Shown here: piece by piece, positions 2,858 to 28,416 of the stretch
Position numbering within the stretch: the stretch's first letter is position 1
Layout: every line of letters begins with the position of its first letter
Made by a program: the position numbers and the translations under genes
Notes under the pieces: generated by a model
Told to the model about the DNA's origin: nothing
Database searches by the model: none
What the model saw: the letters and a program-made list of their open reading frames with translations, nothing else
Assembly (NCBI GenBank): GCA_045863235.1
Contig: BTUM01000094.1
Span: 1-28,783 of the forward strand
Direction: 5' to 3'
DNA from: Candidatus Xenobia bacterium
GTDB lineage: Bacteria > Vulcanimicrobiota > Xenobia > Xenobiales > QWHO01
Length of the DNA stretch: 28,783 nucleotides

Positions 2858-3862
2858 TTACTCCTTGCGAGCTTTCACCGCTACCCGCACGCCGCCCACG
2901 ACCACGGCCATGGCGTCTTCCTTGACGGCCGAGCCGGCTCCCACCGTTTTCCAATCGCGCATCTCCTGGCCGGCCTGGTGGATCTCCTTGAGCGACTGCA
3001 GCTGCGGTTCCCAACGGTTGAGCATGGCCTCCACCTGCCGGGCGTTGCCCCGCCGGTTGGCTCCGTACATCAGCGAGCCCATGGTGGCCAGCATCAACCC
3101 TACCCCGAGAGGGGCCAGACCCCAGTGGAAACCGACGGAGGCGATGCAGGTAAGGCTTCCCCCCAGGCCCCAGGGAGCCAGGCGCACAAAGGGGCCCGCG
3201 CCCTCGTCGCGCTCTTTGACGACCGCGCGCAGCTGCTCCAGGCTCTCGGCCGGGTAGCGGCCCAGCTCCTTCAGATCGCTCTCCACCTGCTTGCGAGCCG
3301 CCTCGAATTCAGGCTGAGACTGCTCGGCCAGGCTGCCCCGGGTGGCCTCGAGCAGCCCGCGCAGCTGGCCCACAGTAGCCGGACCGGACAGATCCACCTC
3401 GCTGGGCTCGCGGACCAGGTTGCCATTGCCCGCATAGGTCGAGCCGGTCACGAAACTCTCCAGCGACTGCGCCTGGCCTTTCAGCCAGCTCCCCTTCTCG
3501 TGGCGGTCGTAGGCCAGGATGCCGGTCATGGCTCCCCCAAACAGGCAGATCACGTTCAGTCCAGTCGTCCAGCCCCCCGTGGGGCCTCCGGTTAACACCA
3601 GGCTGCTCGCCAGGGTGCCCAGCATCACCGCGCTGGCCAGGCCCAGGCGATTGCGCCCGGCGTCCATCTTTCCGGCCCGGGCCAGGAGCTCACTGCGCAC
3701 CTCGCCAAGGGTCTCGCCGGGGACCGATTCGAGCAGGTCGATCTGATCGCTCAACCTCGAGTGGGCGGCCTGACTGGCGGGGTTCGTGAGGTGGTTCTCG
3801 AACCTTCCGGCACGCCGGCGCAGATCGGTCAGGATGTCGCTCTTGGCCACAGAAACCTGCAT
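2858..3862 (-). CDS. Hypothetical membrane protein (two hydrophobic hairpins) with C-terminal VVVGGVRV tag
   Basis: 334 aa from ATG 3862 (MQVSVAKS); start chosen because TATCAT lies 6 nt upstream and it avoids overlap with the divergent gene; two pairs of hydrophobic segments. Confidence 0.75.
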   Translation of the reverse strand: MQVSVAKSDILTDLRRRAGRFENHLTNPASQAAHSRLSDQIDLLESVPGETLGEVRSELLARAGKMDAGRNRLGLASAVMLGTLASSLVLTGGPTGGWTTGLNVICLFGGAMTGILAYDRHEKGSWLKGQAQSLESFVTGSTYAGNGNLVREPSEVDLSGPATVGQLRGLLEATRGSLAEQSQPEFEAARKQVESDLKELGRYPAESLEQLRAVVKERDEGAGPFVRLAPWGLGGSLTCIASVGFHWGLAPLGVGLMLATMGSLMYGANRRGNARQVEAMLNRWEPQLQSLKEIHQAGQEMRDWKTVGAGSAVKEDAMAVVVGGVRVAVKARKE

Positions 3863-3868
3863 GAAATC

Positions 3869-3874
3869 ATGATA
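3869..3874 (-). promoter_or_regulatory. -10 box TATCAT of probable leaderless promoter for 2858..3862
   Basis: Minus strand reads TATCAT-gatttc-ATG; no Shine-Dalgarno. Confidence 0.55.
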
Positions 3875-4924
3875 GAAAAGCGCCCTGAAAAGAAGCTGTT
3901 CGACCTCCTGGAGCAACTCTACGCCGAGCAGGGGCTGCCCAGCTCAGCCAGCAACGCGTGCGGCAGTTGCTTTACCTGCTGCACGGCCCGGGGGCTTACC
4001 CGGCACGCCGTGTCCGAGCTCGAGCTGGCCTACCTGGCCGACCGCGTCAGCCCGGGGGCGGCCGACTCCATGCGGCGCTATGTCAGGCGTGAGCGCAGTG
4101 CAGCCGGAGAGCTGCTCCATCCGGTCTGTCCCCACTACCAGGGCGGCTGCACCGTCTATCCCCACCGGCCTTTCTCGTGCCGGGTCTTCGGGCACTTCCG
4201 CGAGCAGGGAAGCCGCCTGCCCCAGGGCTGCCTGCTGGCCGGCAGCGAGCGGGAGTTTCCCCGTGGAGGCACTCTCGACTCGGTGCCCAAAGCCCGAGAG
4301 CTGCGCGTGCTGGTGCGCGAGTTCAGCCTGTACGCGCCGGCTGCCAGCCAGGTCGAGGTCGAGGGGCATTCTGACTCGCAGGATCCGCTCGATCGCGCCC
4401 TGGCCCACGTGGCCGCCCGGCGCTGGCCGGAGGCTCTGCAAGAGCTGAGCCAGGTCACCGAAGAGTCGGCCTTCGGACTGCAGACGCTGGGCCTGGTGCA
4501 GAGCGCCCTGGGCGACCTGAGCGCTGCGGTGCGCGCCTACGCCCGGGCCTGCGAGCTGGCCCCTGACAGCCTGGAGTGCCTCTGCCAGCTTGGCTCGACC
4601 CGCCTGTTCGCGGGCGAATTCGCGCGCGGTGTGCAGGACCTGGAGGCGGTGGTAGCCCGGGCACCCGAGCACGCTGCGGCCCTGAGCATGCTGGGCTCGT
4701 GCTACACCCTGGCCTCGGATCACGCCAGCGCAGCTGGTTACTACGAGCGCGCTGTGCGGGCTGCACCCGACCAGCCCGAGCTGAAGTTGCGCCTGGCCAG
4801 CGCCTACCTCGAGCTGCAGGACGTATGTGCTGCGCGCGAGCAGCTCGAGGCAGCCAGGGCCTTCGAGACCACCCGCGAGGTGGCCGAGCGAGCCCTCCTC
4901 GCGGGAGGATTCGGGCTCGACTGA
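3869..4924 (+). CDS. YkgJ-family (CxxCxxCC) cysteine-cluster protein fused to TPR repeats
   Basis: CGSCFTCC ... CPHYQGGCTVYPHRPFSCRVFG; C-terminal TPR-like units (LG..Y..A..LAP); start at ATG 3869 (MIEKRPE) is uncertain. Confidence 0.8.
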   Translation: MIEKRPEKKLFDLLEQLYAEQGLPSSASNACGSCFTCCTARGLTRHAVSELELAYLADRVSPGAADSMRRYVRRERSAAGELLHPVCPHYQGGCTVYPHRPFSCRVFGHFREQGSRLPQGCLLAGSEREFPRGGTLDSVPKARELRVLVREFSLYAPAASQVEVEGHSDSQDPLDRALAHVAARRWPEALQELSQVTEESAFGLQTLGLVQSALGDLSAAVRAYARACELAPDSLECLCQLGSTRLFAGEFARGVQDLEAVVARAPEHAAALSMLGSCYTLASDHASAAGYYERAVRAAPDQPELKLRLASAYLELQDVCAAREQLEAARAFETTREVAERALLAGGFGLD

Positions 4925-4928
4925 GCTC

Positions 4929-4972
4929 GTGCGGGCTCAACGCGTCCTCATGCGGGCGCGTTGAACCCGCAC
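4929..4972. terminator. 19-bp stem hairpin between convergent genes (terminator or REP-like)
   Basis: GTGCGGGCTCAACGCGTCC-tcatgc-GGGCGCGTTGAACCCGCAC (1 mismatch, 1 G-U). Confidence 0.6.
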
Positions 4973-4981
4973 CGGGTCAGC

Positions 4982-5611
4982 TCAGGCCGAGGCAGCCATG
5001 GCCGGAAGCGCCTTCTTCCAGCTAGCGAGCTCCTGGATGCGGCCGTACCACTTCAAGATGTTGCTGTACTGCTGCAGAGGCACCTGGGCTGCCTCCCAGT
5101 AGAACATCAAGGCCGCGATGGCGATGTCGGGCAGAGTCACCTCGTTGCCCAGGATGAACTGGTTCCTGGCCAGGTGCTCGTCGAGCACGGGAGCAAAGCG
5201 AGCCACCTTGGCCAGAGCGCCCTCCACCACTTTCTCGTCGGTCACGAAGCCCTGAATGAAGTGGGGAGCCAGTCGCTGGAATTCGACCGTGGCCACGCCC
5301 GGGCCCCACTCGCAGTTGGACCAGTCCAGCCACTGCAGAGCCTGAGCCCGCATCTTGGGGTCGGAGGGCCACAGCGATGACTTGGCCTTCTCGGCCAGGT
5401 AAACCATGATGGCGTTGGACTGGTTGAGCGTCAGATCGCCGTCCACCAGCACCGGAATCGTGCAGTTCGGGTTGATCTGCTTGAACTCGGGCGAGAAGCT
5501 CTCCCCACCAGGCAGGTCGATGATCTTTTCCTCGAAGGGGAGGTTGAGATGGTGCAGCACCGTCTTGACCTTGATGGCGTTGGGTGAGCCCGGGTAGTGA
5601 TAGAGAAGCAT
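4982..5611 (-). CDS. Glutathione S-transferase family protein
   Basis: 209 aa from MLLYHYPGSPN; INPNCTIPVLVDGDLTLNQSNAIMVYLAEK and TLPDIA GST motifs; AAAGGA RBS upstream. Confidence 0.92.
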   Translation of the reverse strand: MLLYHYPGSPNAIKVKTVLHHLNLPFEEKIIDLPGGESFSPEFKQINPNCTIPVLVDGDLTLNQSNAIMVYLAEKAKSSLWPSDPKMRAQALQWLDWSNCEWGPGVATVEFQRLAPHFIQGFVTDEKVVEGALAKVARFAPVLDEHLARNQFILGNEVTLPDIAIAALMFYWEAAQVPLQQYSNILKWYGRIQELASWKKALPAMAASA

Positions 5612-5669
5612 AGAGAGAGTGGTTCCTTTCCCCGATTGCCGGAGGATCATGCCCACCGGCGGGAGGTAA

Positions 5670-5684
5670 CTTTCAAATTGCAAG
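5670..5684. promoter_or_regulatory. Candidate HxlR operator between GST and regulator
   Basis: AT-rich imperfect palindrome CTT-T-CAA-A-TTG-C-AAG in the divergent intergenic region; TATCCT -10-like hexamer at 5690-5695. Confidence 0.5.
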
Positions 5685-5721
5685 CAAAGTATCCTGCCAT
5701 GGCTTGGATGGACTTTTTGCG

Positions 5722-6090
5722 ATGAGATCCCCCTGTCCGCTGGCCAACGCCCTCGACCTGCTCGGTGACCGCTGGACCCTGCTGGTCCTGCGCGACCTGT
5801 TCATGGGCAAACGCCGCTTTGGCGACTTTCTCGAGTCCCCCGAGAAGATCGCCACCAACATCCTCAGCGAGCGGCTGCGGCGCTTGGAGGAAGCCGGACT
5901 TGTGGAGAAGCGTCGCTACCAGGAGCGTCCCCCCCGCGAGGAGTATCGCCTGACCCCCAGGGGCGCGGAGACGCTCCCCATCATCCAGGCAGCCGTGCGC
6001 TGGGCCACCAGGCACATTCCCGATACCTGGCGTCCGCCCGAGTCGCTGGCCACCATGACGCCGGAGCAGTGGCTGGAGTCTCAATCCTGA
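5722..6090 (+). CDS. HxlR-family winged-helix transcriptional regulator (redox-sensing type)
   Basis: MRSPCPLANALDLLGDRWTLLVLRDL...RRFGDF...ILSERLRRLEEAGLV...EYRLTPRG; conserved N-terminal Cys; alternative start TTG 5704. Confidence 0.92.
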   Translation: MRSPCPLANALDLLGDRWTLLVLRDLFMGKRRFGDFLESPEKIATNILSERLRRLEEAGLVEKRRYQERPPREEYRLTPRGAETLPIIQAAVRWATRHIPDTWRPPESLATMTPEQWLESQS

Positions 6091-6161
6091 GCCCCATGGA
6101 GCTGGGCCCACCATTCCGATCCGACCGGATTTTTCCCATGCATCTCAGGCTCGGGCCGTGC

Positions 6162-6167
6162 TATGCT
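6162..6167 (+). promoter_or_regulatory. -10 box TATGCT of probable leaderless promoter
   Basis: TATGCT-caggct-ATG(6174); no SD. Confidence 0.55.
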
Positions 6168-6173
6168 CAGGCT

Positions 6174-7637
6174 ATGAAATCACGCGCTCTTACGGTCGTG
6201 CTGGTGCTGCTGCTGGCGGGTGGGGCCCTGGCCACCACCCCCGACGAGGTGCCCAACCCTCGCAAGAAGGGGAGCTGGGTGACCGACCTGGCCGGGGTCC
6301 TCTCGGCCTCCGACCGGTCTCGCATCGACTCTCTGGCCAACGAGCTGCAGCAGAAGAACGGCAGCCAGCTCGCGGTGGTGGTGCTGCACAACACCGACCG
6401 AACCCCCAAGAGCTTTGCCACCGCCTTGTTCAACAAGTGGGGCATCGGTCAGCGCGGCATCAACAATGGAGTGCTGGTGCTGGTGGTGATGAGCCAGCGG
6501 CGCATCGAGGTCGAGGTGGGCGACGGAGCCCGGATCCACCTGCCCGACCAGCGCACGTCCTCCATTTTGCAGAGCTCGGTCATCCCTCACTTCAAGGCCC
6601 AGCGACCGGCGCGAGGCATCGTGAGCTGCGTCGAGGAGGTCTGCGGGGTGCTGCGTCCGGTTCGATTCGCAGTCCGCTCGAAAGTCTACACGGGCTCAGC
6701 GATCTCCGACTTCGCCAACGTGCTGGGGAAAGACTTCAAGCAGAACCTGATCCATCGCTGCGAGAAGCTCTACAGCGAGCACGGGGTGGAGCTGGTGATC
6801 TTCACCCGCCCCCGGGCCCGCAGCGCCGAGCAAGAGTTCCGCGATCTGCAGCTGGGCCCCAATGCCGTGCTGGGCATGATCGCCACCGAGACCGGAACGG
6901 TGGACGTCTATGCCGGAGCGGATGTGAAGAGCCCGGATCTGCAGGCAGCCCGCAAGTACGCCGCGGACAAGAGCTGGGACCTGGCGACCGGCAAGCTGGT
7001 GGGTAGCGTGGAGGACGCTTCCGCCAACCTGAAGGTCGGTCCCCGCAGCGCCGAGGTGGCTCCACCGCCGCGGCGTCCCGTATCCACCACCTCGGTGACT
7101 CGTCGCCAGGCACCCTATCGCTCCAACGCCAATCCGCTCGGCTGGATGATTGTAGCCGGCGGAATCGTCGCCTGTGGTGGGCTCTACCACTATGCCCGCA
7201 ATCGTCCTCGCAAGTGCCCCCAGTGCGGCACCCGCAAGCATCGGATGTCCGAAAGCGAGGACGATCAGCACCTGAGCCGCGAGGAGATCCTGGAGGAGCA
7301 GCTCGGCAGCGTGAACTACGACGCCTGGCTCTGCCCCAGCTGCTCGCACGTCCACACCGAGCGCTGGAATGCCTGGGTGACCGGCTACCAGAACTGCCCG
7401 AGCTGCTCGCGCCGCACGCTGCACGTCACCCGCACCACGGTCGACTACCCGACCTACGACCACAGCGGTCGAGGCCGGGAAGACGGTCACTGCCGCAACT
7501 GCAACCACCAGTCCACCAGCTACTACACCATCCCCCGCAAGACGCGCAGCTCCTCGAGCTCGAGCTCGCGAAGCTCGGGCAGCTCGGGCTTCGGAGGTGG
7601 CCGCTCGTCGGGCGGAGGCTCGGGAGCGAGCTGGTAG
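6174..7637 (+). CDS. TPM-domain (YgcG-like) membrane protein with zinc-ribbon region and Ser/Gly-rich tail
   Basis: Signal peptide MKSRALTVVLVLLLAGGALA; VTDLAGVLS...FNKWGIGQRGINNGVLVLV TPM motif; TM segment; four CxxC; ends SGFGGGRSSGGGSGASW. Confidence 0.88.
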   Translation: MKSRALTVVLVLLLAGGALATTPDEVPNPRKKGSWVTDLAGVLSASDRSRIDSLANELQQKNGSQLAVVVLHNTDRTPKSFATALFNKWGIGQRGINNGVLVLVVMSQRRIEVEVGDGARIHLPDQRTSSILQSSVIPHFKAQRPARGIVSCVEEVCGVLRPVRFAVRSKVYTGSAISDFANVLGKDFKQNLIHRCEKLYSEHGVELVIFTRPRARSAEQEFRDLQLGPNAVLGMIATETGTVDVYAGADVKSPDLQAARKYAADKSWDLATGKLVGSVEDASANLKVGPRSAEVAPPPRRPVSTTSVTRRQAPYRSNANPLGWMIVAGGIVACGGLYHYARNRPRKCPQCGTRKHRMSESEDDQHLSREEILEEQLGSVNYDAWLCPSCSHVHTERWNAWVTGYQNCPSCSRRTLHVTRTTVDYPTYDHSGRGREDGHCRNCNHQSTSYYTIPRKTRSSSSSSSRSSGSSGFGGGRSSGGGSGASW

Positions 7638-7801
7638 CGCCTGGGCCGGGCACGAGCCAGTGGGCTGAGCTCGCTCCGGGCCGAGAGCCAGCAGGCAGTG
7701 GCTAGACGCTTTGGACCAGCCGGACCGGGCTGAACTCTCCGGTTTGAGCTCTCTCCGGCGGAGGAGCCGGATCGCGTTGAGCCCGCTCCTGCCAGCGCCG
7801 A

Positions 7802-8732
7802 TCAGGCCGAGAGCGCACCCTCGGGGAAGATCGAGAAGCTCAGCCTGTGCTCACCGACCTGGCTGTCCACCTGGACCGCCGCCTTCTCGGGGATCTGCTC
7901 GTAGCGGGTGGTGAAGGCCACCTGCTCGCGGGCCTGGCCGCGCGTCAGCTCCAGGAAGCCCTGAGCCGTGACCACGTTCTTCTCCACCGTGTAAGGGGTG
8001 GCTTTCACGGCCAGGCTCTCCTGCTTGTCGCGCAGGACCTGGCTGGCGCCTCCCTCCTCGGCCCGATAGATCTCGGTGTAGCCCCAGCCCTCGCGGTTGT
8101 TGGAGGAGACCGTCCAGGTGGTGGTGCTCCAGTTGGTGCGGCGGTCCACCTGCAGGTCCCCGATCTTGCCGCTCACGGCGTAGAAGTCATCGTGGACCAG
8201 GGGTGCTGGCGGTGGGGAACTGGCCTGCCATCATGTTCATCTGCACGCCGTCGCCACCGAAACTGGGAGTGAGCGTGACCTTGCTGCCCCAGGTCATCGT
8301 GTGCTGGCCGCGCTCCTTCAGCTCGTCGGTCAGCGGCGTCTCGCGGACCTCACGGACCGTCTGGAGCTTGAGCTCTTCTGGCTGCCCACCCACGGTGCCG
8401 GTCAGCCGGGCCATCTGCTCGCGGGTCACGGCCCCGCCCACTCCAAAGAAGCTGCCTCCCGATCCCTCGCCCTGCACGGGCTCGATCTTCTCCTGTACCT
8501 GAAGGCCGGCAACGACACCCTCCACCTTGACCGAGCCATCGGTCTGGCGGGAGTAGGTGAGATGGATCCGCTCGCTGCCGTCGAGCTGGCCGCTGAGCGT
8601 GACCCGCTCGGGCTTCTCGTTGAAAGCCTGGATCTTGAAGATCTGACCCACCACGCGACCCACCATCGGGTCGTGGTTGGGCAACAGGGCGGCTTGCATC
8701 GGCGTGAGCCTTGCGCTGACTGGGCTAGACAT
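7802..8732 (-). pseudogene. Beta-rich repeat hypothetical protein split by a 1-nt frameshift (ORFs 8187..8732 and 7802..8176)
   Basis: Strong RBS GGAGGG before 8732; removing one C from a CCCC run (plus 8200-8203 or 8214-8217) gives about 309 aa continuing into LVHDDFYAVSGKIG; same repeat motif in both halves; no RBS before 8176. Confidence 0.65.
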
Positions 8733-8972: not shown

Positions 8973-9908
8973 GTGAAACACCAGACACTGATGGCAGCCC
9001 TGTTCATCTTGTTGGGAACCCTGGCCACCGGCTGGAGACTGGGCGAGGCCCACGCCGCCAGCCAGCGCGCCGACGCCCGCCGCGAGCTGGCGGCCGCCCT
9101 GACCCGCAACCAGGCCATGCGCGACGAGTGCTTCCACAATCTTCGGAACCAGTTCACCCCCGGATACCGCGGCAGTCAGCCCCTGATCTGGCTCGACCAG
9201 GGACGAGCCCAGATCGATACCAGGCAGGGTCAGATCTTTGCCACCCAGACTCCCACCTTCCTCGCCATCAACGGCCCCGGCTTCTTCCTGGTGGGCCCTC
9301 CCGAGGCCCCGGTCTACACCCGGGACGGGCGCTTCACCTTGCGCGACGGCGTCCTCTGTGACAGCCTGGGCCGGGCTTTGCTGGGATATCTCCCTCAGCA
9401 GCCTGGACGGCTGGTGGCCTTCCCCCGCCAGAGCTCCGACCAGCGCTATTTCACCAGTCTGCGCTTCGACGAGACGGGAGTGGCCTTCCGCGACCTGGTC
9501 CGGTGCGATCCGCTCACCGGCCAGCCATTCACGGACAGCGTTCCCATCTTCACCGTGGCTCTGGCCAGCTTCCCCAACCCCCAGATGTTGGTGCGCTCGG
9601 GCGACACCGGCTTTCTTCCTGGCAGTCAATCCGGCCAGCCCTCGATTGGAACGGTGCTGCCTCATCTGACCCGGGGGGTGGTGGTTCCAGGCAGTCTGGA
9701 GCTGGCCAACGTGGACTTCCAACAGCAGTCGCTCTGGCTCGCCGCCCTTCGCTCCCAGGCCGGCCTGCTCGGCGAGCCAGCGCCTGCGCCCGTGGCCCCG
9801 GCTCCCGACCAGGCGCCGGCCCACTTCATGATGCCGGGGGCCGATCCGCTGCAACTGGCCCCCAATCCCATGCTCGCCCCCCTCATGATGCAGGGCGCCT
9901 CAAGATGA
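8973..9908 (+). CDS. Flagellar hook/basal-body rod (FlgE/FlgF/FlgG)-family protein, atypical
   Basis: NLRNQFTPGYR (cf. NxANxxTPGFK), LAINGPGFF, YTRDGRF, VALASFPNPQML, GSLELANVD; GAGGGG RBS; hydrophobic N-terminus and Pro-rich C-terminus. Confidence 0.8.
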   Translation: MKHQTLMAALFILLGTLATGWRLGEAHAASQRADARRELAAALTRNQAMRDECFHNLRNQFTPGYRGSQPLIWLDQGRAQIDTRQGQIFATQTPTFLAINGPGFFLVGPPEAPVYTRDGRFTLRDGVLCDSLGRALLGYLPQQPGRLVAFPRQSSDQRYFTSLRFDETGVAFRDLVRCDPLTGQPFTDSVPIFTVALASFPNPQMLVRSGDTGFLPGSQSGQPSIGTVLPHLTRGVVVPGSLELANVDFQQQSLWLAALRSQAGLLGEPAPAPVAPAPDQAPAHFMMPGADPLQLAPNPMLAPLMMQGASR

Positions 9909-13495: not shown

Positions 13496-14287
13496 CTAGG
13501 CTCTCGGCTCGCGGGTCTTGAGGCGCACGCCGCCCACCTGGATGTGGCCCTGGCGCTCGGCGATGGCCACCGACTCGGGCTTCTCGGCCAGCTTGAACAC
13601 CGAGTTGTAAACCTCGGCCTGGCGCTTGAGATGCTCCTCCACCAGCTGCGGTCCCTTCTCCATCCAGTGGGCCAGCACGTTGACGTCGCCCGGAGGGGTC
13701 ATCTGCATCAAGGTGGTCAGGGGCTTGTGCTGCATCGAATTGGCCGCGGTGATCAGGCCCAGGCCGGCGAACAGCGCTCCGGCGCAGCCCACCAGCCCGG
13801 CCGAGCCAGCTACCATGTAGGCCGGGATGGCCGCCATCCAGCTCAGCTGCGCCAGGGCCAGGCCTCCCGAGCTCATCCGATCCACCATCTTCTGGCTCTT
13901 CAGGCTGGCCTCCAGCGCCTTCTCGCGCCGCTGGAGCACCTCTTTGTCCTGGCCGCAAGCGGCCGTCTGCCAGGTGCGGTTCTCGGCCAGGGTATTGGTA
14001 TACTTGTCGTAGCGCTGTGGATCGAGCACCGGGAACTGGCCGGCCAGCACCATGCGCAGGTCGTTTCCGAAAGAAGCGGGCTTGACCTTGTCGGGGTTGC
14101 CCCCGGAAGCTCGGTAGACCTGGCTCCAGGTATCCAGCATCTGCTTGATCTCGGCCTGTTCCTTGGGGTCGGTGGCCCGAGCCTCTCTGGACTTGAGCTC
14201 TTCCACGATGAGACCCAGCTCGTAGCGGTTGCGCTCGAGCAGTGTGGTGCCCTTGCCGGGAGTGCTGACCAGGGGCGAGATGTTCAT
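13496..14287 (-). CDS. Hypothetical membrane protein (one hydrophobic hairpin) with C-terminal IQVGGVRL tag
   Basis: 263 aa from ATG 14287 (MNISPLVSTPG); the ORF extension to 14740 overlaps the MoaD-like gene and is rejected. Confidence 0.75.
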   Translation of the reverse strand: MNISPLVSTPGKGTTLLERNRYELGLIVEELKSREARATDPKEQAEIKQMLDTWSQVYRASGGNPDKVKPASFGNDLRMVLAGQFPVLDPQRYDKYTNTLAENRTWQTAACGQDKEVLQRREKALEASLKSQKMVDRMSSGGLALAQLSWMAAIPAYMVAGSAGLVGCAGALFAGLGLITAANSMQHKPLTTLMQMTPPGDVNVLAHWMEKGPQLVEEHLKRQAEVYNSVFKLAEKPESVAIAERQGHIQVGGVRLKTREPRA

Positions 14288-14293
14288 GGCCAC

Positions 14294-14328
14294 AGCATAC
14301 CGCCGAGCTTTGAAAGGATACTCAAAGC
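14294..14328 (-). promoter_or_regulatory. Leaderless -10 box TATGCT plus upstream palindrome
   Basis: Minus strand TATGCT-gtggcc-ATG; perfect GCTTTGA-N8-TCAAAGC inverted repeat at 14307-14328 (operator or terminator). Confidence 0.55.
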
Positions 14329-17331: not shown

Positions 17332-19356
17332 ATGAAGATCACGCCGCAAGAAATTCAGGCCCGTCTGGTCGCCACTCGCCCCGAGGCCGACTGCCTGCAG
17401 AGCAAGATGGGCGAGCACCTGGAGGGCGAGGTGCTGGTCAAGCTGCCGGATACCGCCGACGTGGCCGAGCTGGGCCAGGACTACGGGCTGCAGGTGCTCG
17501 AGACGATCAAGTTCTCGGGCGAGATGCAGAAGAACTTCAACGGCAAGCTGGTGCACGCACGCCTGCCCGAGGGAATCTCCACCGCCCAGGGGATCGCCCT
17601 GCTCGAGAAGGACCCTCGCGTGATCTACGCCGATGCCAACGACGTGGTCGAGCGCCAAGCCACCCCGGACGATCTGCACCCCCAGCTCTGGGGGCTCAAG
17701 AAGATCGAGGCCGAGGCGGCCTGGGACACGGTCAAGGGCAGCCGCAACGGACCCATCGTGGCCGTCATCGACAGCGGCATCGATCAAGATCACCCCGACC
17801 TGGTGGCCAACCTCTGGACCAATCCTCGCGAGACCGCTGACGGCCGAGATAACGACGACAACGACATCGTGGACGACCTGCACGGCTACAACGCCATCAA
17901 CGGCAGCGGCAGCCCGGAGGACGACAACTCTCACGGCACCCACTGCGCCGGCACCATCGCGGGCGTGGGCAACAACGGCCTGGGCGTGGTGGGGGTGAAC
18001 TGGGAAGGCCAGATCCTGGCCGGCAAGTTCCTCTCGGACAAGGGCAAGGGAGCCATCTCCAACGCCGTCAAGGTGGTGGGCTACGCCAGCGCCCAGGGGG
18101 CGCGCATCCAGAGCCATTCCTGGGGCCACACCGGCAGCTGGGGCAACCGGGCCCTGGAGGACGCCATGCGCTCCTCGCCCTCGCTGCACATCTGCGCGGC
18201 CGGCAACGACGGCAAGGATGTCGACGCCGAGCCGCACTACCCATCCAGCTTCGGCCTGGACAACATCGTCAGCGTGGCGGCCAGCGACTGGTCCGACCAG
18301 CTGGCCAGCTTCTCCAACTACGGCGCGGTGGGCGTGGACCTGGCCGCTCCCGGGGTGGGCATCTACTCCACCACTCCGGGCAGCTATGGCAGCATGTCGG
18401 GCACCTCCATGGCCACCCCGCATGTCAGCGGCGTGGCCGCCCTGATCGCCACTGCTCAGCCCAACGCCAGTAACGATCAGATCAAGCGCCGCCTGATGGC
18501 CAGCGTGGACGTGGTGGACTCGCTGGCGGGCACCTCCCAGACGGGGGGACGCCTCAACGCCCGCAAGGCGGTGGAATCTGACAGTGTGGCTCCCGGGGCG
18601 CTGGGGAGTTTCCGCGTGAGCGCCCGGGCCACCGGCGAGATGCAGCTTGGCTGGATCGCCACCGGCGACGACGGCAACCAGGGTCGGGCTTCGAGTTATC
18701 AGCTTCGCAGCAGCCCCAACCCCATCGACGAGGGCAACTTCGAGTCGCTGCCGGTGATGCGCACCGGCATGCCGGCCGAGGCCGGTCAGGCCGAGACCCG
18801 GCCCTCGCTGGCCTTCCCCGAGACGGGCGACCGCACCATGCACTTTGCCATGCGGGCGGTGGACAACGTGGGCAACCGCTCCCCGCTGGCCCGAACGTCG
18901 GTGGTCATCCCGGGCACTCGGGTGGCTTTCGACGACAGCATGGACGGCTTTTCGAACCGCTGGAGCGGCGAGGGCTGGGGGCGCGTCTCCATCGAGGGAC
19001 GGGGCAAGGTCTGGACCGACTCGCCCTCGGGCGACTATGAGCACGGCGCCAACCGCGCCCTGACCTCACCCTCCATCTCGCTGGCCGGGGTGACCGGCGC
19101 GGCCGTGACCTTCGACTACAAGCACGACCTGGAGAACCGCTTCGACAAGGTGGCTCTGGAGGTTTCCTCCGACGGCCAGAACTGGACCGGCCTGCAGGAG
19201 TTCACGGGCAAGAAAATGTGGGAGCGCGCCCGGGTGGACCTGTCGGCTTACGACGGGCAGAGCATCCAGCTGCGCTTCCGCCTGACCACCGACAACGCGG
19301 TGGCCAGGGACGGGTTTTACCTCGACCGCGTGGTGGTGGCGGGCTCGCAGAAGTAG
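17332..19356 (+). CDS. Subtilisin-like S8 serine protease with prodomain and C-terminal FN3-like and jelly-roll domains
   Basis: Catalytic triad VAVIDSG / HGTHCAG / GTSMATPHV; AAGN oxyanion motif; no hydrophobic signal peptide. Confidence 0.93.
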   Translation: MKITPQEIQARLVATRPEADCLQSKMGEHLEGEVLVKLPDTADVAELGQDYGLQVLETIKFSGEMQKNFNGKLVHARLPEGISTAQGIALLEKDPRVIYADANDVVERQATPDDLHPQLWGLKKIEAEAAWDTVKGSRNGPIVAVIDSGIDQDHPDLVANLWTNPRETADGRDNDDNDIVDDLHGYNAINGSGSPEDDNSHGTHCAGTIAGVGNNGLGVVGVNWEGQILAGKFLSDKGKGAISNAVKVVGYASAQGARIQSHSWGHTGSWGNRALEDAMRSSPSLHICAAGNDGKDVDAEPHYPSSFGLDNIVSVAASDWSDQLASFSNYGAVGVDLAAPGVGIYSTTPGSYGSMSGTSMATPHVSGVAALIATAQPNASNDQIKRRLMASVDVVDSLAGTSQTGGRLNARKAVESDSVAPGALGSFRVSARATGEMQLGWIATGDDGNQGRASSYQLRSSPNPIDEGNFESLPVMRTGMPAEAGQAETRPSLAFPETGDRTMHFAMRAVDNVGNRSPLARTSVVIPGTRVAFDDSMDGFSNRWSGEGWGRVSIEGRGKVWTDSPSGDYEHGANRALTSPSISLAGVTGAAVTFDYKHDLENRFDKVALEVSSDGQNWTGLQEFTGKKMWERARVDLSAYDGQSIQLRFRLTTDNAVARDGFYLDRVVVAGSQK

Positions 19357-19411: not shown

Positions 19412-19438
19412 CCCGGGCGACGTCGCTCCGGGAAGCCC

Positions 19439-21890: not shown

Positions 21891-21944
21891 ACAGGCAGCC
21901 GCCCTATGTGAACGAGATCTCTGGCGGGTATCGCTATGCGTCGG

Positions 21945-21996: not shown

Positions 21997-22063
21997 GGGC
22001 GGGTATCCCTGGTCGAAGCCTGTCGACAATCAGGACCTCGCGCGACATGGGATCGCGGTCCCA

Positions 22064-22963
22064 TCAGCCCTCCAACTCGCCTCGCAGGGTCAAAGCCAGC
22101 CCCTCCACCATGCGGGCGAAGGGCTCGTAGGTCAGCTTCTCCCAGGTGTCGCTCAGCTCGTGGTAGTGGTCATAGCGGTAGAACACCGTGTCCGTGACCA
22201 TCACGGCGGGAATGCCGGCGGCCCAGAAGCTGGCGTGATCGGACATGCCCATGCCGGCTTCCAGCAGGAAGCTCTCGCTGAAGTCGGTGGCGGCCACGCC
22301 CAGGCTGGGGAAGGCCACCCGCTCGCGCCAGCGGCCCACCAGGCGTTGAACCAGCGGGGCTGACATCGAGTTGCCCACGAAGGCCACGAAGTCGCCCACG
22401 TCCGGCACTCCGGGGAAGGGGGCGCGCTGGGAGTCGGGCTCGGAAACGTAGTAACCCACCGTCTCCAGGCACACCATGAAGCGGACCTCAAAGGGAGCCA
22501 GCTGGCGCACGTAGCGCACGCTCCCCATCTCCTCGGTGCGGTAGAAGGGTGGCTCCTCGTTAGGAAAGAGCACGAAGCGCAGCCCCTCCACCCCCGCCAG
22601 CAGGCGGGCCAGCTCCAACACGGCCGCCACTCCGCTGGCGTTGTCGTTGGCCCCGGGGCAGTCGAGCACCGAGTCGTAGTGAGCCCCCACCACCACATAC
22701 GGGCCCGGACCTGTGCCTGCTTCCAGGTTGTGAAACAGAGCCCCCTCGGCCTCGAAGCTGAGCCGATTGACCCGGTAGCCGCAGCCTTCGAGCTGGCCCT
22801 GCAGGTACTCGACCGTGGCCTCCAGGGCAGGATAAAAGCTCAGATTGCGAGGGCCGATGGTCTCAGCCAGATGCCGCACGTGCGCCTGAAGGCGCTCGCG
22901 GATCTCCGGAGCGGCCGGGGGCGGGTCTCCGTGCCAGGAGACCCCGGGCATGGGGGCGAGCAC
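22064..22963 (-). CDS. M28 family metallopeptidase
   Basis: VVVGAHYDS, PGANDNASG, NEEPP, SDHASF, YHELSDT; starts 1 nt after the M64 stop. Confidence 0.92.
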   Translation of the reverse strand: MLAPMPGVSWHGDPPPAAPEIRERLQAHVRHLAETIGPRNLSFYPALEATVEYLQGQLEGCGYRVNRLSFEAEGALFHNLEAGTGPGPYVVVGAHYDSVLDCPGANDNASGVAAVLELARLLAGVEGLRFVLFPNEEPPFYRTEEMGSVRYVRQLAPFEVRFMVCLETVGYYVSEPDSQRAPFPGVPDVGDFVAFVGNSMSAPLVQRLVGRWRERVAFPSLGVAATDFSESFLLEAGMGMSDHASFWAAGIPAVMVTDTVFYRYDHYHELSDTWEKLTYEPFARMVEGLALTLRGELEG

Positions 22964-22964
22964 T

Positions 22965-24596
22965 TCAGGCCGGGCAGACCCGGAAGTCCATCTGGCCGTC
23001 GAAGTCGGAGTTGTAGACCCGCACTTCCGGGGTGCGGAACTCGACCTTCACGCGGTACTTGCCGCCCTGCTCAGGCTGGAACTTGCGCTGGTTGGCATAC
23101 TGCAAGAGCTCCTGCTCGTTGCCCTCCTCGTCCACCTGGAACCAGCGCACCCCCACGCCTTCCAGCGGCGGGGTTCGCACGCTGACCTCCTGGCGGCCGT
23201 CCGAGTTGGTGCTCACGTCCACTCCATCCACCAGATTGATGCGGCTCATGAACTTGTGCCACATGTTCTCGCGATCCACCGGGCAGAACTCGGTCGAGCG
23301 CATGTCCCGCATCAGGCAGTCGCCGTGGGTAGGCCGATAGCCGGCCATCCGCTCGGTGTAGTCGAAGCTGGGAAAGGCTCCCACCTTGCCCGGGGTAAAA
23401 TCATAGTCAGCATCGTACAGGTTGACCCGCAGCGAGCCGAGCACGTTGTCGCCGTCGAACACTTTCTCCTGGAAGGTGATGGTGTGACGGCCCGGCTCCA
23501 GAGTGGGGGGCTCGACAGGCTTGAAGAAGCTGCGATCATCGGTGTGCAGGCCCGCGTAAGGCAGGGGTTTGCCGTCGAGCAGGATCTCTACGTCCTCGGG
23601 CGTGTCCCAGCCCACGGCGCTGATGTGGACATCCAGCCGCGAGGGCTTGTTCTCGGGGTTCTCGGGCACGTTGAAACGATAGGAGACCGGACCTTCGGCC
23701 AGGTTCTGCCAGGGGTAGTCGCCCACCAGCGCTTTGCCGTGCTCGGGCTTGAGATCACCGGTCAGCCAGTGCTTCCAGGGCACGTCCGGGGTGGAGGAGT
23801 GATTGGCGCCCCAGTAAACCTGGCCTCCGTCATACTCCTCGCCCACGTTGCCGAAATTGTGGCCCAACTCGTGGCGCAGCACCATGGTGCCGCTCTCGGG
23901 CGAGCGGGTGGTGATGGCATAACGTCCCCCAAGCCCCCCGTAATAGTTGTCGTTGGCGATCAGGATAGGATAGTCCGTGGCCGGAGCCAGAGCGATGGCT
24001 CGCTCGCAGGCTCGCCGGTCGCCTGGCATGATAGCTCGCTTGGAGCCTTCCGGTGAGCGATAGAGCTTGAGAGCTGTGTCTTTCTGGTCGCCGTCGCTCA
24101 GGCCCGACTCGTTGGAAGGCACGAAGACCGCGTGCACGTTGAAAAGAGGCAGATAACTGGCAAAGGTCTGACCCTGGAACATGTCGTCCGTGATCCGCTT
24201 TGCGTCCTCGAAGAAACGCTCTTTCTCCTCGACCGTGTAGCCGTCGCCCACGATGGTCAGGTTGATGCGGTTGTTGAGGGGGCCCTGATTGACCAGGGTG
24301 CGGACCTCCGAGCCGGGCCAGGCCTGCTGAGGATCTTTGAGGGCTTCTACTGCTGAGAGGGGCTTGACCGAGGCACGATACTCCCGGGGCAGGGCTTTGT
24401 CAGAGTAGAGCACCTCCTCGAACAGCTCCTGGCTGGTCTGGGTCTCTTCGTCGAGGTGAGCGGGAAGCGAGCGGAGGACGACCTTGTCCTGCTTGATCTG
24501 CTTGTCCTCGGGCTCCACCGAGAGAACCTGCACGTCGTCGCCGTCGCGATATTGCTGCACTCGCCAGGAGGGGGGAGGGTTGGTCTTCACGTTCAT
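22965..24596 (-). CDS. M64 (IgA-peptidase-like) zinc metallopeptidase
   Basis: RINLTIVGDGYT, FNVHAVFVPSNESG, YYGGLGG, HELGHNFGNVGEEY, CLMR...FCPV; no signal peptide. Confidence 0.88.
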   Translation of the reverse strand: MNVKTNPPPSWRVQQYRDGDDVQVLSVEPEDKQIKQDKVVLRSLPAHLDEETQTSQELFEEVLYSDKALPREYRASVKPLSAVEALKDPQQAWPGSEVRTLVNQGPLNNRINLTIVGDGYTVEEKERFFEDAKRITDDMFQGQTFASYLPLFNVHAVFVPSNESGLSDGDQKDTALKLYRSPEGSKRAIMPGDRRACERAIALAPATDYPILIANDNYYGGLGGRYAITTRSPESGTMVLRHELGHNFGNVGEEYDGGQVYWGANHSSTPDVPWKHWLTGDLKPEHGKALVGDYPWQNLAEGPVSYRFNVPENPENKPSRLDVHISAVGWDTPEDVEILLDGKPLPYAGLHTDDRSFFKPVEPPTLEPGRHTITFQEKVFDGDNVLGSLRVNLYDADYDFTPGKVGAFPSFDYTERMAGYRPTHGDCLMRDMRSTEFCPVDRENMWHKFMSRINLVDGVDVSTNSDGRQEVSVRTPPLEGVGVRWFQVDEEGNEQELLQYANQRKFQPEQGGKYRVKVEFRTPEVRVYNSDFDGQMDFRVCPA

Positions 24597-24699
24597 AGCT
24601 TCCCGAGCTTATCAGGGAGACATCCCGAACGGGTGAACGGTAAGTTACTTTGTAACCAACGAAGGTCCGGGCCCCTCGGGGGAGAACTTGCGCCCCCTC

Positions 24700-25926
24700 A
24701 TGGGCCACCCCATCGGTATCGACGCCACCCCCAAGGAGCGCAAGGGCGCTCTGGTGACGCTGTTTTTCACCATCTTCATCTCGCTCATCGGCTTTGGCAT
24801 CATCATCCCCCTCTTGCCCACCTACGGCCAGCAGATGGGGGCCACGCCCTGGGAGATCGGCTGGCTGTTCGCCTCCTACTCGCTGGCCCAACTGCTGGCC
24901 GCTCCCATTCTGGGCGATTTGAGCGACCGCTGGGGGCGCCGGCCGGTGATGATCGCAAGTCTGCTGGGCACAGCCCTCAGCTTCGTGCTGCTAGCCCGGG
25001 CCCAGAGCCTCCAGATGCTGTTCGTGGCCCGCATCCTGGACGGGCTTTCGGGGGGCAACATCTCGGCCGCCCGGGCCTACATCGCCGACATCACCGAGCC
25101 GCAGAACCGGGCCCGGGCCTTCGGCCTGATCGGGGTGGCTTTCGGTCTGGGCTTCGTACTGGGGCCGGCCCTGGGAGGACTGTTCTTCCAGATTCACCTC
25201 TCCGCCCCCGCCTGGCTGGCGGCCGCCCTCTCCCTGGTGGCCACCGGCATGGCCTTCTTCCTTCTGCCCGAGACGCGCCACGCTACCAGCGCCCGACGAC
25301 CCCCTTTCTGGGCCTCCCTGCCCACCGTGCTGAGCCAGCCCGCGCTGGCCTATCTCATGCTGGTCGACTTCATGATCTGGGCCTCGCTCTCGGTTTACCA
25401 GACCACCTTCCCCCTGTTCGCAGAGCGCCGCTTTCACTGGGATCCGGGGCAAATCGGCCTGGTGCTGGCCGGGGTGGGGCTGATCGGAGCCTTCGTTCAG
25501 GGCGGCCTGGTGGGCCGCCTGGTGGCCCGCCTGGGCGAGAAGCGCGTGCTGATCCTCGGCCTGTCCCTGGGCTCGGTTTCCCTGATTCTGGCCTCGGTAT
25601 CCCAGCAACCGGTTCTGTTCCTGATGTTCCTGGCTCCGGCTGTGGCCGCGAGCGGGCTGGTCTCTCCCAGCCTGGTGGCCATGGTCAGCCAGGCCGCCCG
25701 GGCCGACGAGCAGGGAAGGGTGCAGGGGGCGGCCAGTGCCATCGAGGGTCTCGGTCGCGCCACCGGCCCGGTCTGGGGCAACGGGCTCTTGCAGGCGCGC
25801 GGCGAGGGCGCCTCCTACCTGTCGGCAGGGCTGGTTTTACTGTTGACGGCCCTGTTGGCCATGGCCATCAAGCCCGCCCGGATCGAGCAAGCTGGCGCCG
25901 GTTTGACGCCGGATGGCGGGGGCTGA
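24700..25926 (+). CDS. MFS drug:H+ antiporter (DHA1/TetA-like)
   Basis: About 12 TM; motif A GDLSDRWGRRPV, motif B ARILDG, motif C GFVLGPALGG; alternative start TTG 24688. Confidence 0.92.
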   Translation: MGHPIGIDATPKERKGALVTLFFTIFISLIGFGIIIPLLPTYGQQMGATPWEIGWLFASYSLAQLLAAPILGDLSDRWGRRPVMIASLLGTALSFVLLARAQSLQMLFVARILDGLSGGNISAARAYIADITEPQNRARAFGLIGVAFGLGFVLGPALGGLFFQIHLSAPAWLAAALSLVATGMAFFLLPETRHATSARRPPFWASLPTVLSQPALAYLMLVDFMIWASLSVYQTTFPLFAERRFHWDPGQIGLVLAGVGLIGAFVQGGLVGRLVARLGEKRVLILGLSLGSVSLILASVSQQPVLFLMFLAPAVAASGLVSPSLVAMVSQAARADEQGRVQGAASAIEGLGRATGPVWGNGLLQARGEGASYLSAGLVLLLTALLAMAIKPARIEQAGAGLTPDGGG

Positions 25927-26081
25927 GCGATGAGCAAATGGTAACCTTTGTAACAGAATCTTAATGCTTTCGACGCTTACTCCCGAACGGCATTGGGAGT
26001 ATGCTAGGTTCAGCACAACCAGCCCATGGCGATCGGGCGCGAAGCAGGCGACCCGCAGAAGCGAAGGGGGAACCGCATCCG

Positions 26082-27728
26082 ATGGACCTGTTGAATGGCT
26101 TCGGTCTGGGCTCTCCAACGACCCGAGGAGTGGGTCAGCCGTTTGGGATTGGAGCTGCGCCCGGTCTGGGCCGCCCGGCCGGTGGCGTGGGCGGACCCGG
26201 TGCGCTACCGCCCGAGCTCGTCGGGGCCCTCATCAACATGCTCAGCCAGTTGCTGCAGTCGCTCACCCAGCTGAACCAGGGGTGGGGCAACTTCGCTGGC
26301 CAGGGTCAACCACCGGGAGGCATCGGTGGCGCCGGCAACGCCGGGAATGCTGGCAACGCCGGGAATGCCGGCAACGCCGGGAACGCCGGGAACGCCGGGA
26401 ACGCCGGGAACGCCGGGAATGCCGGCAATGCCGGCAACGCCGGGAATGCCGGCAACGCTGGCAACGCTGGCAACGCTGGCAACGCTGGCAACGCCGGGAA
26501 TGCCGGCAACGCTGGCAACGCCGGGAATGCCGGGAATGCCGGGAATGCCGGGAACGCCGGGAATGCCGGGAACGCGGGCAATGCAAGGAACGCTGGCGGA
26601 GCTGGCGGTGCCTATGGCGGAGGTGCCCGGGGCGGCGGAGCCGGGGCCGCCGGAGGAGCCGGTGGGGCGGCCGGTGCTGGCGGTTGCGATCACGGCGGTG
26701 GCGGCGGAGCGGCTGGCGGTGGTGGCAGAGCCGGCGCGGCTGGCGGGGCCGGTGGTGGAGCCGGTGCGGGCGGCGCTTATGGCGGCGGCATCGGAGCCGT
26801 TGGCGGGGCCGGTGGAGCTGGCGGAGCCGGAGGTGGAGCCGGCACTGGCGGCGCCTATGGTGGCGGCGGCATCGGAGCTGTCGGCGGGGCTGGAGGAGCT
26901 GGCGCTGCCGGGGGCGGAGCTGGAGCTGGCGGGGCCTACGGAGGCGGCATCGGAGCCTCGGGCGGAGCTGGTGGAGCCGGCAACGGCAACGGCACCCTGA
27001 CGCTGGGACAGTATCTCCTTTACGGCCCCGGCGGACCACCGCAGGGCGGAGCCGGGGGCGGCACGGCGGGCGCGGGCGGAGCTTATGGCGCCGGCAGCGC
27101 GGGCGGAGGCACCGGTGTGCAGAACCTCTCGGCTCCGGCCATGCAGGGTCCCTCTGATCTGAACGAGTTTGCCAGCTACCTGGCCGCCCAGCGAGCCGGA
27201 GGGGCACTCCAGGGCCAGACCAGCATCTCCCAGAGGGACGCCCTGGCCGGCACACGTTTTGCGCAGGTGCAGGACCCGACCCAGTGGCACGCGGCCGTGG
27301 CCCGCGACTACGCGGCCCAATTTGCCGCGTATGCCATTGGGGCCGATCCGCTATCGGCCCAGGGCCTGGCCGCTGGCCAACAGGCCTTCCCGCAGATGGC
27401 ACCCGAGGCCCAGCTGTTCATGCAGGTCGCCTCCGTCTTCAAGGGCAACCTGTTCAACGGCCCCGGCCTCTACGACAACCCCGGACTGGGCCGGCTCCTG
27501 CAGAGCACGGGCAACGGCGATTTGATCAACAATCCCCAGGTGGGCCAGACCGACGTGCAGACCATCGGGGCCATCACCCAGGCCCTCAACCGGGGGACCC
27601 TGACGCTGAATCAGGTGATCCAGAGCGGGACCATCGACAACCTCGACCGCTACTCTCAGATCATCAACTACGTCCAGACAGGTGGGTTCGCCAACGACAT
27701 CTTCCGCTATGAGAACGCGCCCACTTAG
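26082..27728 (+). CDS. Glycine-rich low-complexity protein with (AGN)28 and GGAYG repeats and a globular C-terminal domain
   Basis: GAAGGGGGAA RBS before ATG 26082; 548 aa; repeat variation is synonymous in this frame; normal codon style in the C-terminal part. Confidence 0.8.
   Translation: MDLLNGFGLGSPTTRGVGQPFGIGAAPGLGRPAGGVGGPGALPPELVGALINMLSQLLQSLTQLNQGWGNFAGQGQPPGGIGGAGNAGNAGNAGNAGNAGNAGNAGNAGNAGNAGNAGNAGNAGNAGNAGNAGNAGNAGNAGNAGNAGNAGNAGNAGNAGNAGNAGNARNAGGAGGAYGGGARGGGAGAAGGAGGAAGAGGCDHGGGGGAAGGGGRAGAAGGAGGGAGAGGAYGGGIGAVGGAGGAGGAGGGAGTGGAYGGGGIGAVGGAGGAGAAGGGAGAGGAYGGGIGASGGAGGAGNGNGTLTLGQYLLYGPGGPPQGGAGGGTAGAGGAYGAGSAGGGTGVQNLSAPAMQGPSDLNEFASYLAAQRAGGALQGQTSISQRDALAGTRFAQVQDPTQWHAAVARDYAAQFAAYAIGADPLSAQGLAAGQQAFPQMAPEAQLFMQVASVFKGNLFNGPGLYDNPGLGRLLQSTGNGDLINNPQVGQTDVQTIGAITQALNRGTLTLNQVIQSGTIDNLDRYSQIINYVQTGGFANDIFRYENAPT
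26331..26591 (+). repeat. 9-bp coding tandem repeat GCN-GGS-AAY: 28 AGN units plus one ARN
   Basis: 252 bp from 26331 to 26582 equals 28 units; variation confined to third codon positions. Confidence 0.95.
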
Positions 27729-27765
27729 GTCCCTGATCGAAACGAAGCGAGGGCAGCCTGACCGG

Positions 27766-28416
27766 TCAGGAGCGACGCGGGACTCGCACGCCGCCCACCA
27801 CCACGCCGTTACCGTCCATCCGCACGACCCCGCCCGACTCGCCCTGAAGGGCCTCGGCCATGCGGGTCACCTCTTCCCGGGTCTGAGCCTGCCAATCAGG
27901 GTCGGCCTCGGCCGGCAGGGGCTCGGGCTTCCAGCCCGCCATCGAGGAGCGGTCGTGCTGCACGGGCCGTTGCTCCCACAGCCCCTGTTTGCGAATGGTG
28001 CGGCTGGCCTGCTCGCCCTCCTCCTGGCGGAAGGGCTGGCCGGTGTTGAGATCGATGCTGACCAGGGCCAGGGCCGCGATAGCCCCGCCGGTGTGCATCA
28101 TGACGTGATAACAGTGCAGTACCGGAGTCTTGGTGAACGTCCAGCCGCGACGCTCGGTGCGCTGCACGAAGATCTCCTGGTGCAACAGCTCGCCCTTGCC
28201 GGGCTCGGGGCGTGAGTTCCAGATCTCGATGCGGTCCTCAGTATTGGGGTTCTGGTCGAAGTGGCTGCCGAAGAAGATCTGAGAGCGAGGATAGGAGCTG
28301 TCCAGCGGCTTTGTGTCCAGGTGGCCCAGGAGGTAGCCGTCAGGAGCGCGCTGACCAAGCTCGTTCTTGGCCTGCTTGAAGCGAAAGAGGGCCCTTTGCG
28401 GATCGATGGTCAGCAC
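27766..28416 (-). CDS. Hypothetical protein with C-terminal VVVGGVRV tag
   Basis: 216 aa, GTG start, ends GGVVRMDGNGVVVGGVRVPRRS. Confidence 0.75.
   Translation of the reverse strand: MLTIDPQRALFRFKQAKNELGQRAPDGYLLGHLDTKPLDSSYPRSQIFFGSHFDQNPNTEDRIEIWNSRPEPGKGELLHQEIFVQRTERRGWTFTKTPVLHCYHVMMHTGGAIAALALVSIDLNTGQPFRQEEGEQASRTIRKQGLWEQRPVQHDRSSMAGWKPEPLPAEADPDWQAQTREEVTRMAEALQGESGGVVRMDGNGVVVGGVRVPRRS

Follow-up and report, generated by a model that had tools for sequence, protein, structure and literature searches.

A short C-terminal tag on about 170 proteins of a Candidatus Xenobia bacterium, probably exported by a type III machine derived from the flagellum

We analyzed a stretch of 28,783 nucleotides from Candidatus Xenobia bacterium (contig BTUM01000094.1, assembly GCA_045863235.1), hereafter the window, which is contig C94 of an 8.36-Mb genome that is 97.6% complete (G000). 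Three genes in the window encode proteins ending in the same short segment, here called the tag, and each is preceded by the same promoter motif at the same spacing (Table 1). The three C-termini and a DNA 14-mer within them had been singled out in a preliminary description of the window, and all were found on the minus strand where that description placed them. Its statement that the bodies of the three proteins are dissimilar was borne out, as they fall into three different BLAST clusters, and Pfam returned no family for any of them at E ≤ 0.05. The first gene belongs to a cluster of five paralogues, and its product has only 4 close homologues among the 8000 candidates scored. Gene 2 is covered by contigs from sludge and wastewater RNA libraries in 4/4 runs (two studies; the runs were picked by this gene). 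The contigs of three runs, all from one study, end 13-55 nt short of the ATG, and the fourth continues through it; RNA contigs cannot show transcript starts.

Table 1 The tagged genes of the window, their C-terminal tags and their promoter motifs
Feature	Positions	Strand	Description
Tagged gene 1	2858-3862	-	ATG start, 334 aa; two hydrophobic hairpin-like segments; without Sec-like signal
C-terminal beta-meander tag, gene 1	2873-2929	-	HMM score 24.0 bits
Shared promoter motif, gene 1	3869-3901	-	Direct repeat and -10-like box; 25.3 bits; 28 nt from second repeat to start, motif ends 6 nt before the ATG; predicted leaderless
Tagged gene 2	13496-14287	-	ATG start, 263 aa; helical body, one hydrophobic hairpin-like segment
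C-terminal beta-meander tag, gene 2	13511-13567	-	HMM score 28.6 bits
Shared promoter motif, gene 2	14294-14326	-	27.1 bits; 28 nt; predicted leaderless
Tagged gene 3	27766-28416	-	GTG start, 216 aa; singleton body
C-terminal beta-meander tag, gene 3	27772-27828	-	HMM score 22.7 bits
Shared promoter motif, gene 3	28423-28455	-	34.1 bits; 28 nt; predicted leaderless

The tag recurs throughout the genome. A hidden Markov model (HMM) was seeded on the three window tags and then iterated on 88,734 six-frame open reading frames (ORFs) of G000, using reversed ORFs as a decoy and cut-offs of at least 12 bits (strict) or at least 10 bits (looser); separately, 7,154 genes were called with a custom script. 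The model built from the window tags alone retrieved about a hundred C-terminal matches. After iteration, the strict cut-off yielded 162 matches, of which 158 lie within 40 amino acids (aa) of the stop codon and 119 within 5, against 2 in the reversed ORFs; the looser cut-off yielded 171 C-terminal matches against 3. The prediction of many copies genome-wide therefore held, and neither of two outcomes that would have spoken against it, namely few further matches or random internal positions, was observed. Tags in called genes number 168 of the 171, or about 2.3% of the genes of G000. With the tag trimmed off, the bodies of these 168 proteins form 80 BLAST clusters, 61 of them singletons, and are thus not full-length paralogues. 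Since most full-length untagged homologues terminate in degenerate versions of the tag, a fair estimate of the total, weak copies included, is 190-200.

The profile reads [GAS]-[VI]-x-E-x4-V-x-[VI]-G-G-V-x-[VL]-[RK]-x-R over about 19-20 aa, with the first G 97% conserved and a Pro/Gly/Ser/Ala linker upstream. The core of the motif first proposed is contained in it, but the real motif is longer and comprises three strands rather than two. Structure prediction for the single tag (AlphaFold2, on 75 tags) gave a three-strand beta-meander that is all beta, in agreement with the claim that it holds no transmembrane (TM) helix. Judged from strand geometry, its five Val/Ile/Leu positions would share one face. 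Across 20 orthologue pairs, identity is 72% in the tag, 54% over the 20 residues before it and 51% in the body, a contrast that is inflated because the pairs were picked by tag score; the residues after the tag are unconserved. The basic tail near the stop had been taken as part of the signal; the C-terminal position stood, whereas the residues following the motif vary in number from 0 to 30, and not every copy is terminal. The few internal copies comprise four strong ones and two weaker ones, one of the six being a second copy, and some proteins carry two copies of the tag. The other five internal tags precede a linker and a repeat domain; at the corresponding loci (L060 and L061, G000:C135:61-2361 and C98:439-4347; C3:76119, C3:123379 and C32:68044) a Pro-rich linker is followed by 180-300 aa of repeats, beta-type in four and helical in one. 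Covariation between columns of the tag is confounded and was not used.

The DNA 14-mer is identical in the three window genes, as described, but it is not a DNA element. It occurs in 8/36 tags that encode VGGVR (about 8% would be expected from codon use, and three of the eight lie in the window) and only 9 times in the genome, which rules out a mobile DNA element and indicates that the constraint acts on the protein.

Searches of known families were negative. Against 75 tags, NCBIfam gave 1 weak single-member match and Pfam 5 weak single-member matches; among PDB sequences uL24 alone was returned (E 1.3), so that no described domain accounts for the tag. The ESM Atlas is blank for the 32-aa tag part, and a structure search with a 31-aa model returned no chain at Z ≥ 2 among 48,161, although a model of this size is too small to inform. 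The HMM gave 11 matches at E ≤ 0.001 among 1.84 billion representatives, the best stretch being C-terminal in 10, while the motif is too short for this search to show absence outside the phylum; seven were looked up, and the three that are named are all hypothetical proteins of Candidatus Eremiobacterota. Literature searches found no description of such a tag, and secretion is not mentioned in passages of PMC11484240. Generic beta-meanders, such as those of the GAPDH Rossmann insertion, PDZ domains and uL24, have the same local strand pattern and account for false positives of the HMM, but they are embedded in larger folds, score weakly, lie internally and bear no sign of homology to the tag. 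A GAPDH beta-meander (L182, G012) that weakly matches the HMM illustrates how generic this fold pattern is. The tag family is real, undescribed and lineage-restricted.

Restriction to a lineage had been predicted, and it was confirmed within the phylum. A first tag model was positive in 14/151 phylum genomes, and a broader one in 13/357 genomes that are at least 80% complete, spread over 9 genera and 6 families; in the largest family it was positive in 0/268. Distant genomes have 5-15 matches each at E ≤ 0.05, and the 27/27 tags inspected there lie 0-16 residues from the stop, often on propellers. A propeller from another phylum genome, G060, which had first been scored negative, ends in a variant of the tag in which the turn is G-D and the basic tail is missing. 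A renewed search gave 13 matches in G060, of which 11 are C-terminal, and 5 in other genomes that were rejected as internal look-alikes, e.g. in GAPDH and PDZ; a model trained on G060 gave 21, with 4/4 further ones checked being C-terminal. The acidic G-D variant was found in one genus, and the other genera of its family (f3) were tag-negative with three further models. The net charge of the tag is about +2 in G000 but negative in 10/11 tags of G060 (-2 to -6 in 9/11). The hydrophobic pattern and the glycine are therefore constant and the charge is genome-specific. It follows that the basic tail is not an invariant feature, and the earlier comparison with the basic tails of type IV secretion system (T4SS) substrates fails on this point.

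The N-termini of the tagged proteins suggest a route out of the cell. A crude test found a Sec-like h-region in 1/168 tagged proteins versus 1279/5448 others. Instead, tagged N-termini are enriched in M-x-I starts and in Ser, Pro, Ala and Thr, and a D-x-V-x-L-S-type motif occurs in 28/168 of them versus 111/5448 others. A classifier trained on the first 50 residues reached an area under the curve (AUC) of 0.84 in family-grouped cross-validation, compared with 0.58 for a control segment, and 413/6,366 untagged proteins exceed the tagged median. The type III signal, as described in passages of PMC8047123, is an N-terminus biased toward Ser, Thr and Pro that has no motif in common, and on compositional evidence the tagged proteins have such N-termini without a Sec peptide.

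Pfam recognized little in the 91/168 tagged proteins scanned: 16 propellers (PQQ_2 or PD40), 5 InhA-like MAM domains, one HD domain and one DUF885. Many of the other tagged proteins resemble, by eye, helical solenoids or small hydrophobic-hairpin proteins, and a membrane segment is predicted in 47/168. In tag-negative genomes, propellers belonging to the same Pfam family carried the tag in 0/24 complete ORFs (27 found, 3 cut); these end at the last blade, many with Sec- or lipoprotein-type starts by eye. The number of PQQ propellers was rejected as a pointer to a partner or route for the tag. In the window, a Gly-rich protein of Gly/Asn/Ala tripeptide repeats with a globular C-terminus (26001-27728, plus strand) lies beside tagged gene 3, and its paralogue on contig C33 likewise adjoins a tagged gene.

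The shared promoter ties the tagged genes to one another and to many untagged ones. The word TTTCAG stands upstream of 71/167 tagged genes versus 3% of 5,939 low-scoring genes. The full motif consists of a TTCAG direct repeat with an 11-bp period, then a TAnnnT box and, 6-7 nt later, the start codon. At 10 bits or more, in two-fold cross-validation on held-out genes, it was found at 102/167 tagged genes, at 89/427 untagged genes with type III-like N-termini and at 29/1,500 sampled others. The whole genome holds 420 sites versus 33 in the reversed genome. Sites that run directly into an ORF and are thus predicted to be leaderless number 262, and 113 of these ORFs are tagged at 10 bits or more and 9 weakly; among promoter genes with a leader, 6/102 are tagged. 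Upstream of the tagged genes examined in other phylum genomes, the motif was present in 7/10 in G060, 2/3 in G040 and 2/4 in G054. Sigma-28-type promoter words were not enriched. The layout presumably resembles activator sites of the OmpR/PhoB/SARP type, as a candidate likeness. We infer that the promoter defines a set of about 390 genes, or close to 5% of the genome; most of the set has type III-like N-termini, and one third is tagged. That tag, leaderless start and promoter go together may in part reflect common descent of a cassette with a replaced middle rather than function. Two promoter sites also stand before each of two near-identical 71-aa genes at G000:C133:508-2833.

Tagged and untagged members of this promoter set differ in their domains. 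Catalytic Pfam domains were found in 23/66 untagged promoter-bearing proteins, drawn from about 191 of at least 150 aa, versus at most 2/91 tagged proteins, which were scanned at a looser threshold (p 2e-8). The untagged enzymes are peptidases, nucleases, phosphatases, acyltransferases and others; the subtilases have just a MAM-like domain in common with tagged proteins, and none of those listed is tagged. The window itself encodes a subtilase-MAM protein (17332-19356, plus strand) and an M64 peptidase (22965-24596, minus strand) with type III-like starts and no Sec peptide, and neither has a tag or a scoring promoter motif.

A candidate machine is encoded elsewhere in G000. The FlhA cluster, at L058:8849-19886 and L059 (G000:C27:54348-79252), comprises FlhAB, FliPQQR, FliO, FliMNN, FliGG, FliFE, FliHIJ, FliK, FlgBC and one FlgE/F-like gene, and so covers a complete export apparatus, the C-ring, the ATPase complex, FliK and rod genes. 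At its end lie three copies of an 81-aa gene, one of them with the shared promoter upstream, a 104-aa gene and a 473-aa gene that ends in a related segment. Neither flagellin nor the MotB plug was found in G000; flagellin, present in 55/151 genomes, does not track the tag and was dropped as a correlate. The 81-aa family occurs in 41/60 genomes, among them G060 and every one of the 14 that were positive with the first tag model. Its model is one long helix and not a hairpin of the SctF type, so that a role as needle is unproven. Among the matches listed, synteny of the cluster extends across genomes with and without the tag. Besides one full FlhA, G000 has five stand-alone paralogues of its C-terminal domain (L002-L005 on C80, C3, C1 and C106, and one on C107); in some relatives, FHIPEP matches number as many as 19. 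A stand-alone FlgE/F/G D1-like protein with a hydrophobic N-terminus is encoded in the window (8973-9908, plus strand), remote from the export cluster.

Markers of other routes were sought in five genomes. Contractile sheath (PF04984) and VipB (PF05943) were absent from all five (0/5 each), as were the T4SS coupling protein (PF02534; diverged DotL-type proteins were not searched separately) and family-1 encapsulin (PF04454; other shell families were not searched). The CesT family (PF05932) occurs in 1/36 genomes, which is not G000. A scan for the FlgN, FliS and FliT families, which covered 28 proteins of the export cluster only, found none. As partners or routes for the tag, encapsulin, sheath, VipB, the T4SS coupling protein and CesT were therefore dropped, their markers not having been found in the genomes searched; genes neighboring tagged genes, accessory genes of the cluster (among the matches listed) and the stand-alone FlhA paralogues were dropped as well. 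A family of about six 100-130 aa proteins (G000:C42:12363, C34:40790, C62:31930 and C74:12122 among them) has two members near tagged genes and one with the promoter.

Several known systems place a common label at the C-terminus, and the tag resembles them to a degree. The type IX secretion system (T9SS) C-terminal domain (CTD), LPXTG, PEP-CTERM and GlyGly-CTERM each mark a large set of proteins in one genome, and GlyGly-CTERM has a Gly-Gly pair and a basic end. All four need an N-terminal Sec signal, and those of the sortase type also a membrane helix, whereas only 1/168 tagged proteins has a Sec-like start and no TM helix follows the motif, as only 3 residues separate the GG from the basic run. 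The T9SS CTD spans 70-80 aa and is recognized by its profile; the tag spans about 19 aa and matches no Pfam or NCBIfam family. Among T4SS labels, the Bartonella BID domain with its basic tail is, like the tag, a C-terminal module on effectors. BID and XVIPCD are about 120-140 aa long, bind the VirD4 coupling protein and constitute the export signal. XVIPCD, of Xanthomonas-type T4SSs, is likewise one module on many unrelated effectors, as set out in passages of PMC8047123. For both, the difference lies in their size and in the coupling protein, which was not found in the five genomes searched; basic-tail signals further call for a net positive tail, and 10/11 G060 tags are net negative. Encapsulin cargo peptides and cargo of the type VI secretion system (T6SS) or other contractile machines are set aside because the shell and sheath genes sought in the five genomes were not found.

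Among type III systems, PIP-box and hrp-box promoters are the regulon boxes of injectisome effectors. Such effectors have an N-terminal compositional signal (passages of PMC8047123) and scattered cargo genes under one repeat promoter, as here. The tag differs in being C-terminal and not beside the N-terminal signal, where class I chaperone domains lie, CesT was not found in G000, the machine, which has rod genes, is of the flagellar type, and leaderless transcripts are predicted for most tagged genes. The nearest likeness is to the C-terminal regions by which FlgN binds FlgK and FlgL, FliT binds FliD and FliS binds FliC, on flagellar-type type III substrates with an N-terminal signal (passages of PMC8527033). 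The tag has this C-terminal position on predicted flagellar-type substrates. These four regions are, however, disordered and substrate-specific, whereas about 170 unrelated proteins share the one tag, in a genome that has no flagellin, and it is predicted to be a beta-meander and not a disordered or helical segment of the kind bound by FlgN, FliS or FliT. The tag thus resembles the C-terminal labels of other routes yet fails the defining tests of each, and there is a fair chance that it represents a new kind of type III sorting.

From their N-termini and shared promoter, the approximately 170 tagged proteins are likely cargo of the flagellum-derived type III machine. That the tag is itself the export signal, as the preliminary description had it, is unlikely, because type III-like N-termini are shared with some 400 untagged proteins and many genomes with the same export cluster have no detectable tag. 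We tentatively propose instead, with a probability of about 0.45, that the tag is a class label on type III cargo, read by a shared cytoplasmic chaperone or adaptor before export. One activator would switch on about 390 genes through the repeat promoter, and the Ser/Pro/Ala-rich N-termini would route their products to the type III gate. The tag, set apart by its Pro/Gly/Ser linker, would bind one genome-encoded partner through the Val/Ile/Leu face, and this partner would hold or rank the non-catalytic class (propellers, helical solenoids, MAM-like domains and membrane-hairpin proteins) in the mode of flagellar chaperones on the C-terminal ends of late substrates. The tags of one genome would then drift together, G-G and basic here and G-D and acidic in G060, because they track the partner. 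A cytoplasmic chaperone or adaptor is favored because the C-terminal region of the substrate is what FlgN, FliS and FliT bind (passages of PMC8527033), because class I chaperones of the CesT family were not found in G000 and because the tags co-drift. Somewhat less confidently, an N-terminal export signal on all cargo together with a C-terminal meander on the non-enzyme third might form a two-ended code, with one multi-cargo receptor or anchor, in an independently evolved, flagellum-derived and non-motile machine of Xenobia-type Eremiobacterota with a 400-gene, promoter-defined secretome.

A number of observations weigh against this proposal. The inference of export rests on N-terminal bias and co-regulation only, and the gene starts derive from a custom gene caller. 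Most genes of the export cluster lack the promoter, which was also found at 0/14 tagged genes in four other lineages. Most genomes with the 81-aa family have no detectable tag, so that the link between tag and cluster is nested and the tagged genomes are kin rather than independent cases. No chaperone-like family is enriched beside tagged genes, no cluster gene is special to tag-positive genomes among the matches listed, and the number of stand-alone FlhA C-terminal paralogues does not track the tag. Flagellar chaperones bind disordered ends and not a folded meander (passages of PMC8527033), while the tag model is itself modest (predicted local distance difference test score, pLDDT, 73; predicted template modeling score, pTM, 0.33). 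Lastly, 3/23 tagged genes had no orthologue, in addition to the inflated conservation contrast.

The strongest competitor, possible but less probable, is that the tag acts after export. The C-terminus would exit last, fold outside and dock on the cell surface, on a filament of the 81-aa protein or on other tags, thereby displaying some 200 binding proteins while the untagged enzymes diffuse or are delivered. This would suit, nearly as well as the proposal above, a cargo of binding folds rather than enzymes; it would also suit a tag predicted to fold alone whose hydrophobic face needs a packing partner, and the double copies or internal copies followed by a further repeat domain; the genome-wide drift of the tag fits binding to itself or to a surface as well as it fits a chaperone. 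On the other hand, the 47 cargo proteins with predicted membrane segments suit membrane insertion better than tethered display, the filament-like gene is kept in tag-negative genomes, and simple self-pairing is disfavored because the tags of one genome have equal charge sign.

It is doubtful that the tag targets injected effectors to a membrane, organelle or protein of a host or prey. The cargo set of propellers, solenoids and bilobed hydrophobic proteins does resemble effector repertoires of host-associated bacteria, and the basic tail in G000 could bind anionic lipid. A predatory lifestyle has also been suggested for Candidatus Eudoremicrobiaceae of this phylum (passages of PMC9259500). Between genera, nevertheless, the charge changes from basic to acidic under a constant hydrophobic pattern, no host is known and no translocon was identified. 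Slightly less credible still is a role in protein stability, in which the tag, as a degron or stabilizing element, would have cytoplasmic cargo that was not secreted either removed or protected. The tag is short, near-terminal and placed after a flexible linker, and exposed hydrophobic strands are typical handles for proteases and adaptors, but the last residues before the stop are not conserved and differ in number, internal copies exist, and the exclusion of enzymes is explained less simply. Least probable is an export signal for some other, unrecognized pathway with an incidental N-terminal bias, for although the tag is patchy where the type III cluster is widespread, and families of the type IV pilus/type II-like kind are expanded (one PilC-like family has 39 members), hundreds of untagged proteins have the same N-terminal features and promoter, a search of the five genomes found no marker of T4SS, T6SS, contractile machines or encapsulin, and type II routes need a Sec/Tat step that this cargo lacks.

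Type III cargo is normally hard to recognize, having no shared motif. Here tag, promoter and N-terminal bias, taken together, list the about 390 genes that probably make up the secretome of an uncultured lineage. No precedent was found in the databases and literature searched for a C-terminal label that about 170 type III cargo proteins have in common, and such a label bears on the question of how a single export gate can rank and route substrates by the hundred. If the two-ended code is true, its receptor or anchor would have no described counterpart in any type III system. As a portable tag of 20 residues with natural basic and acidic versions, it should make its partner findable by pull-down and by co-variation. 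For the organisms themselves, bacteria of sludge and sediment, such a label points to a predatory or host-associated life.

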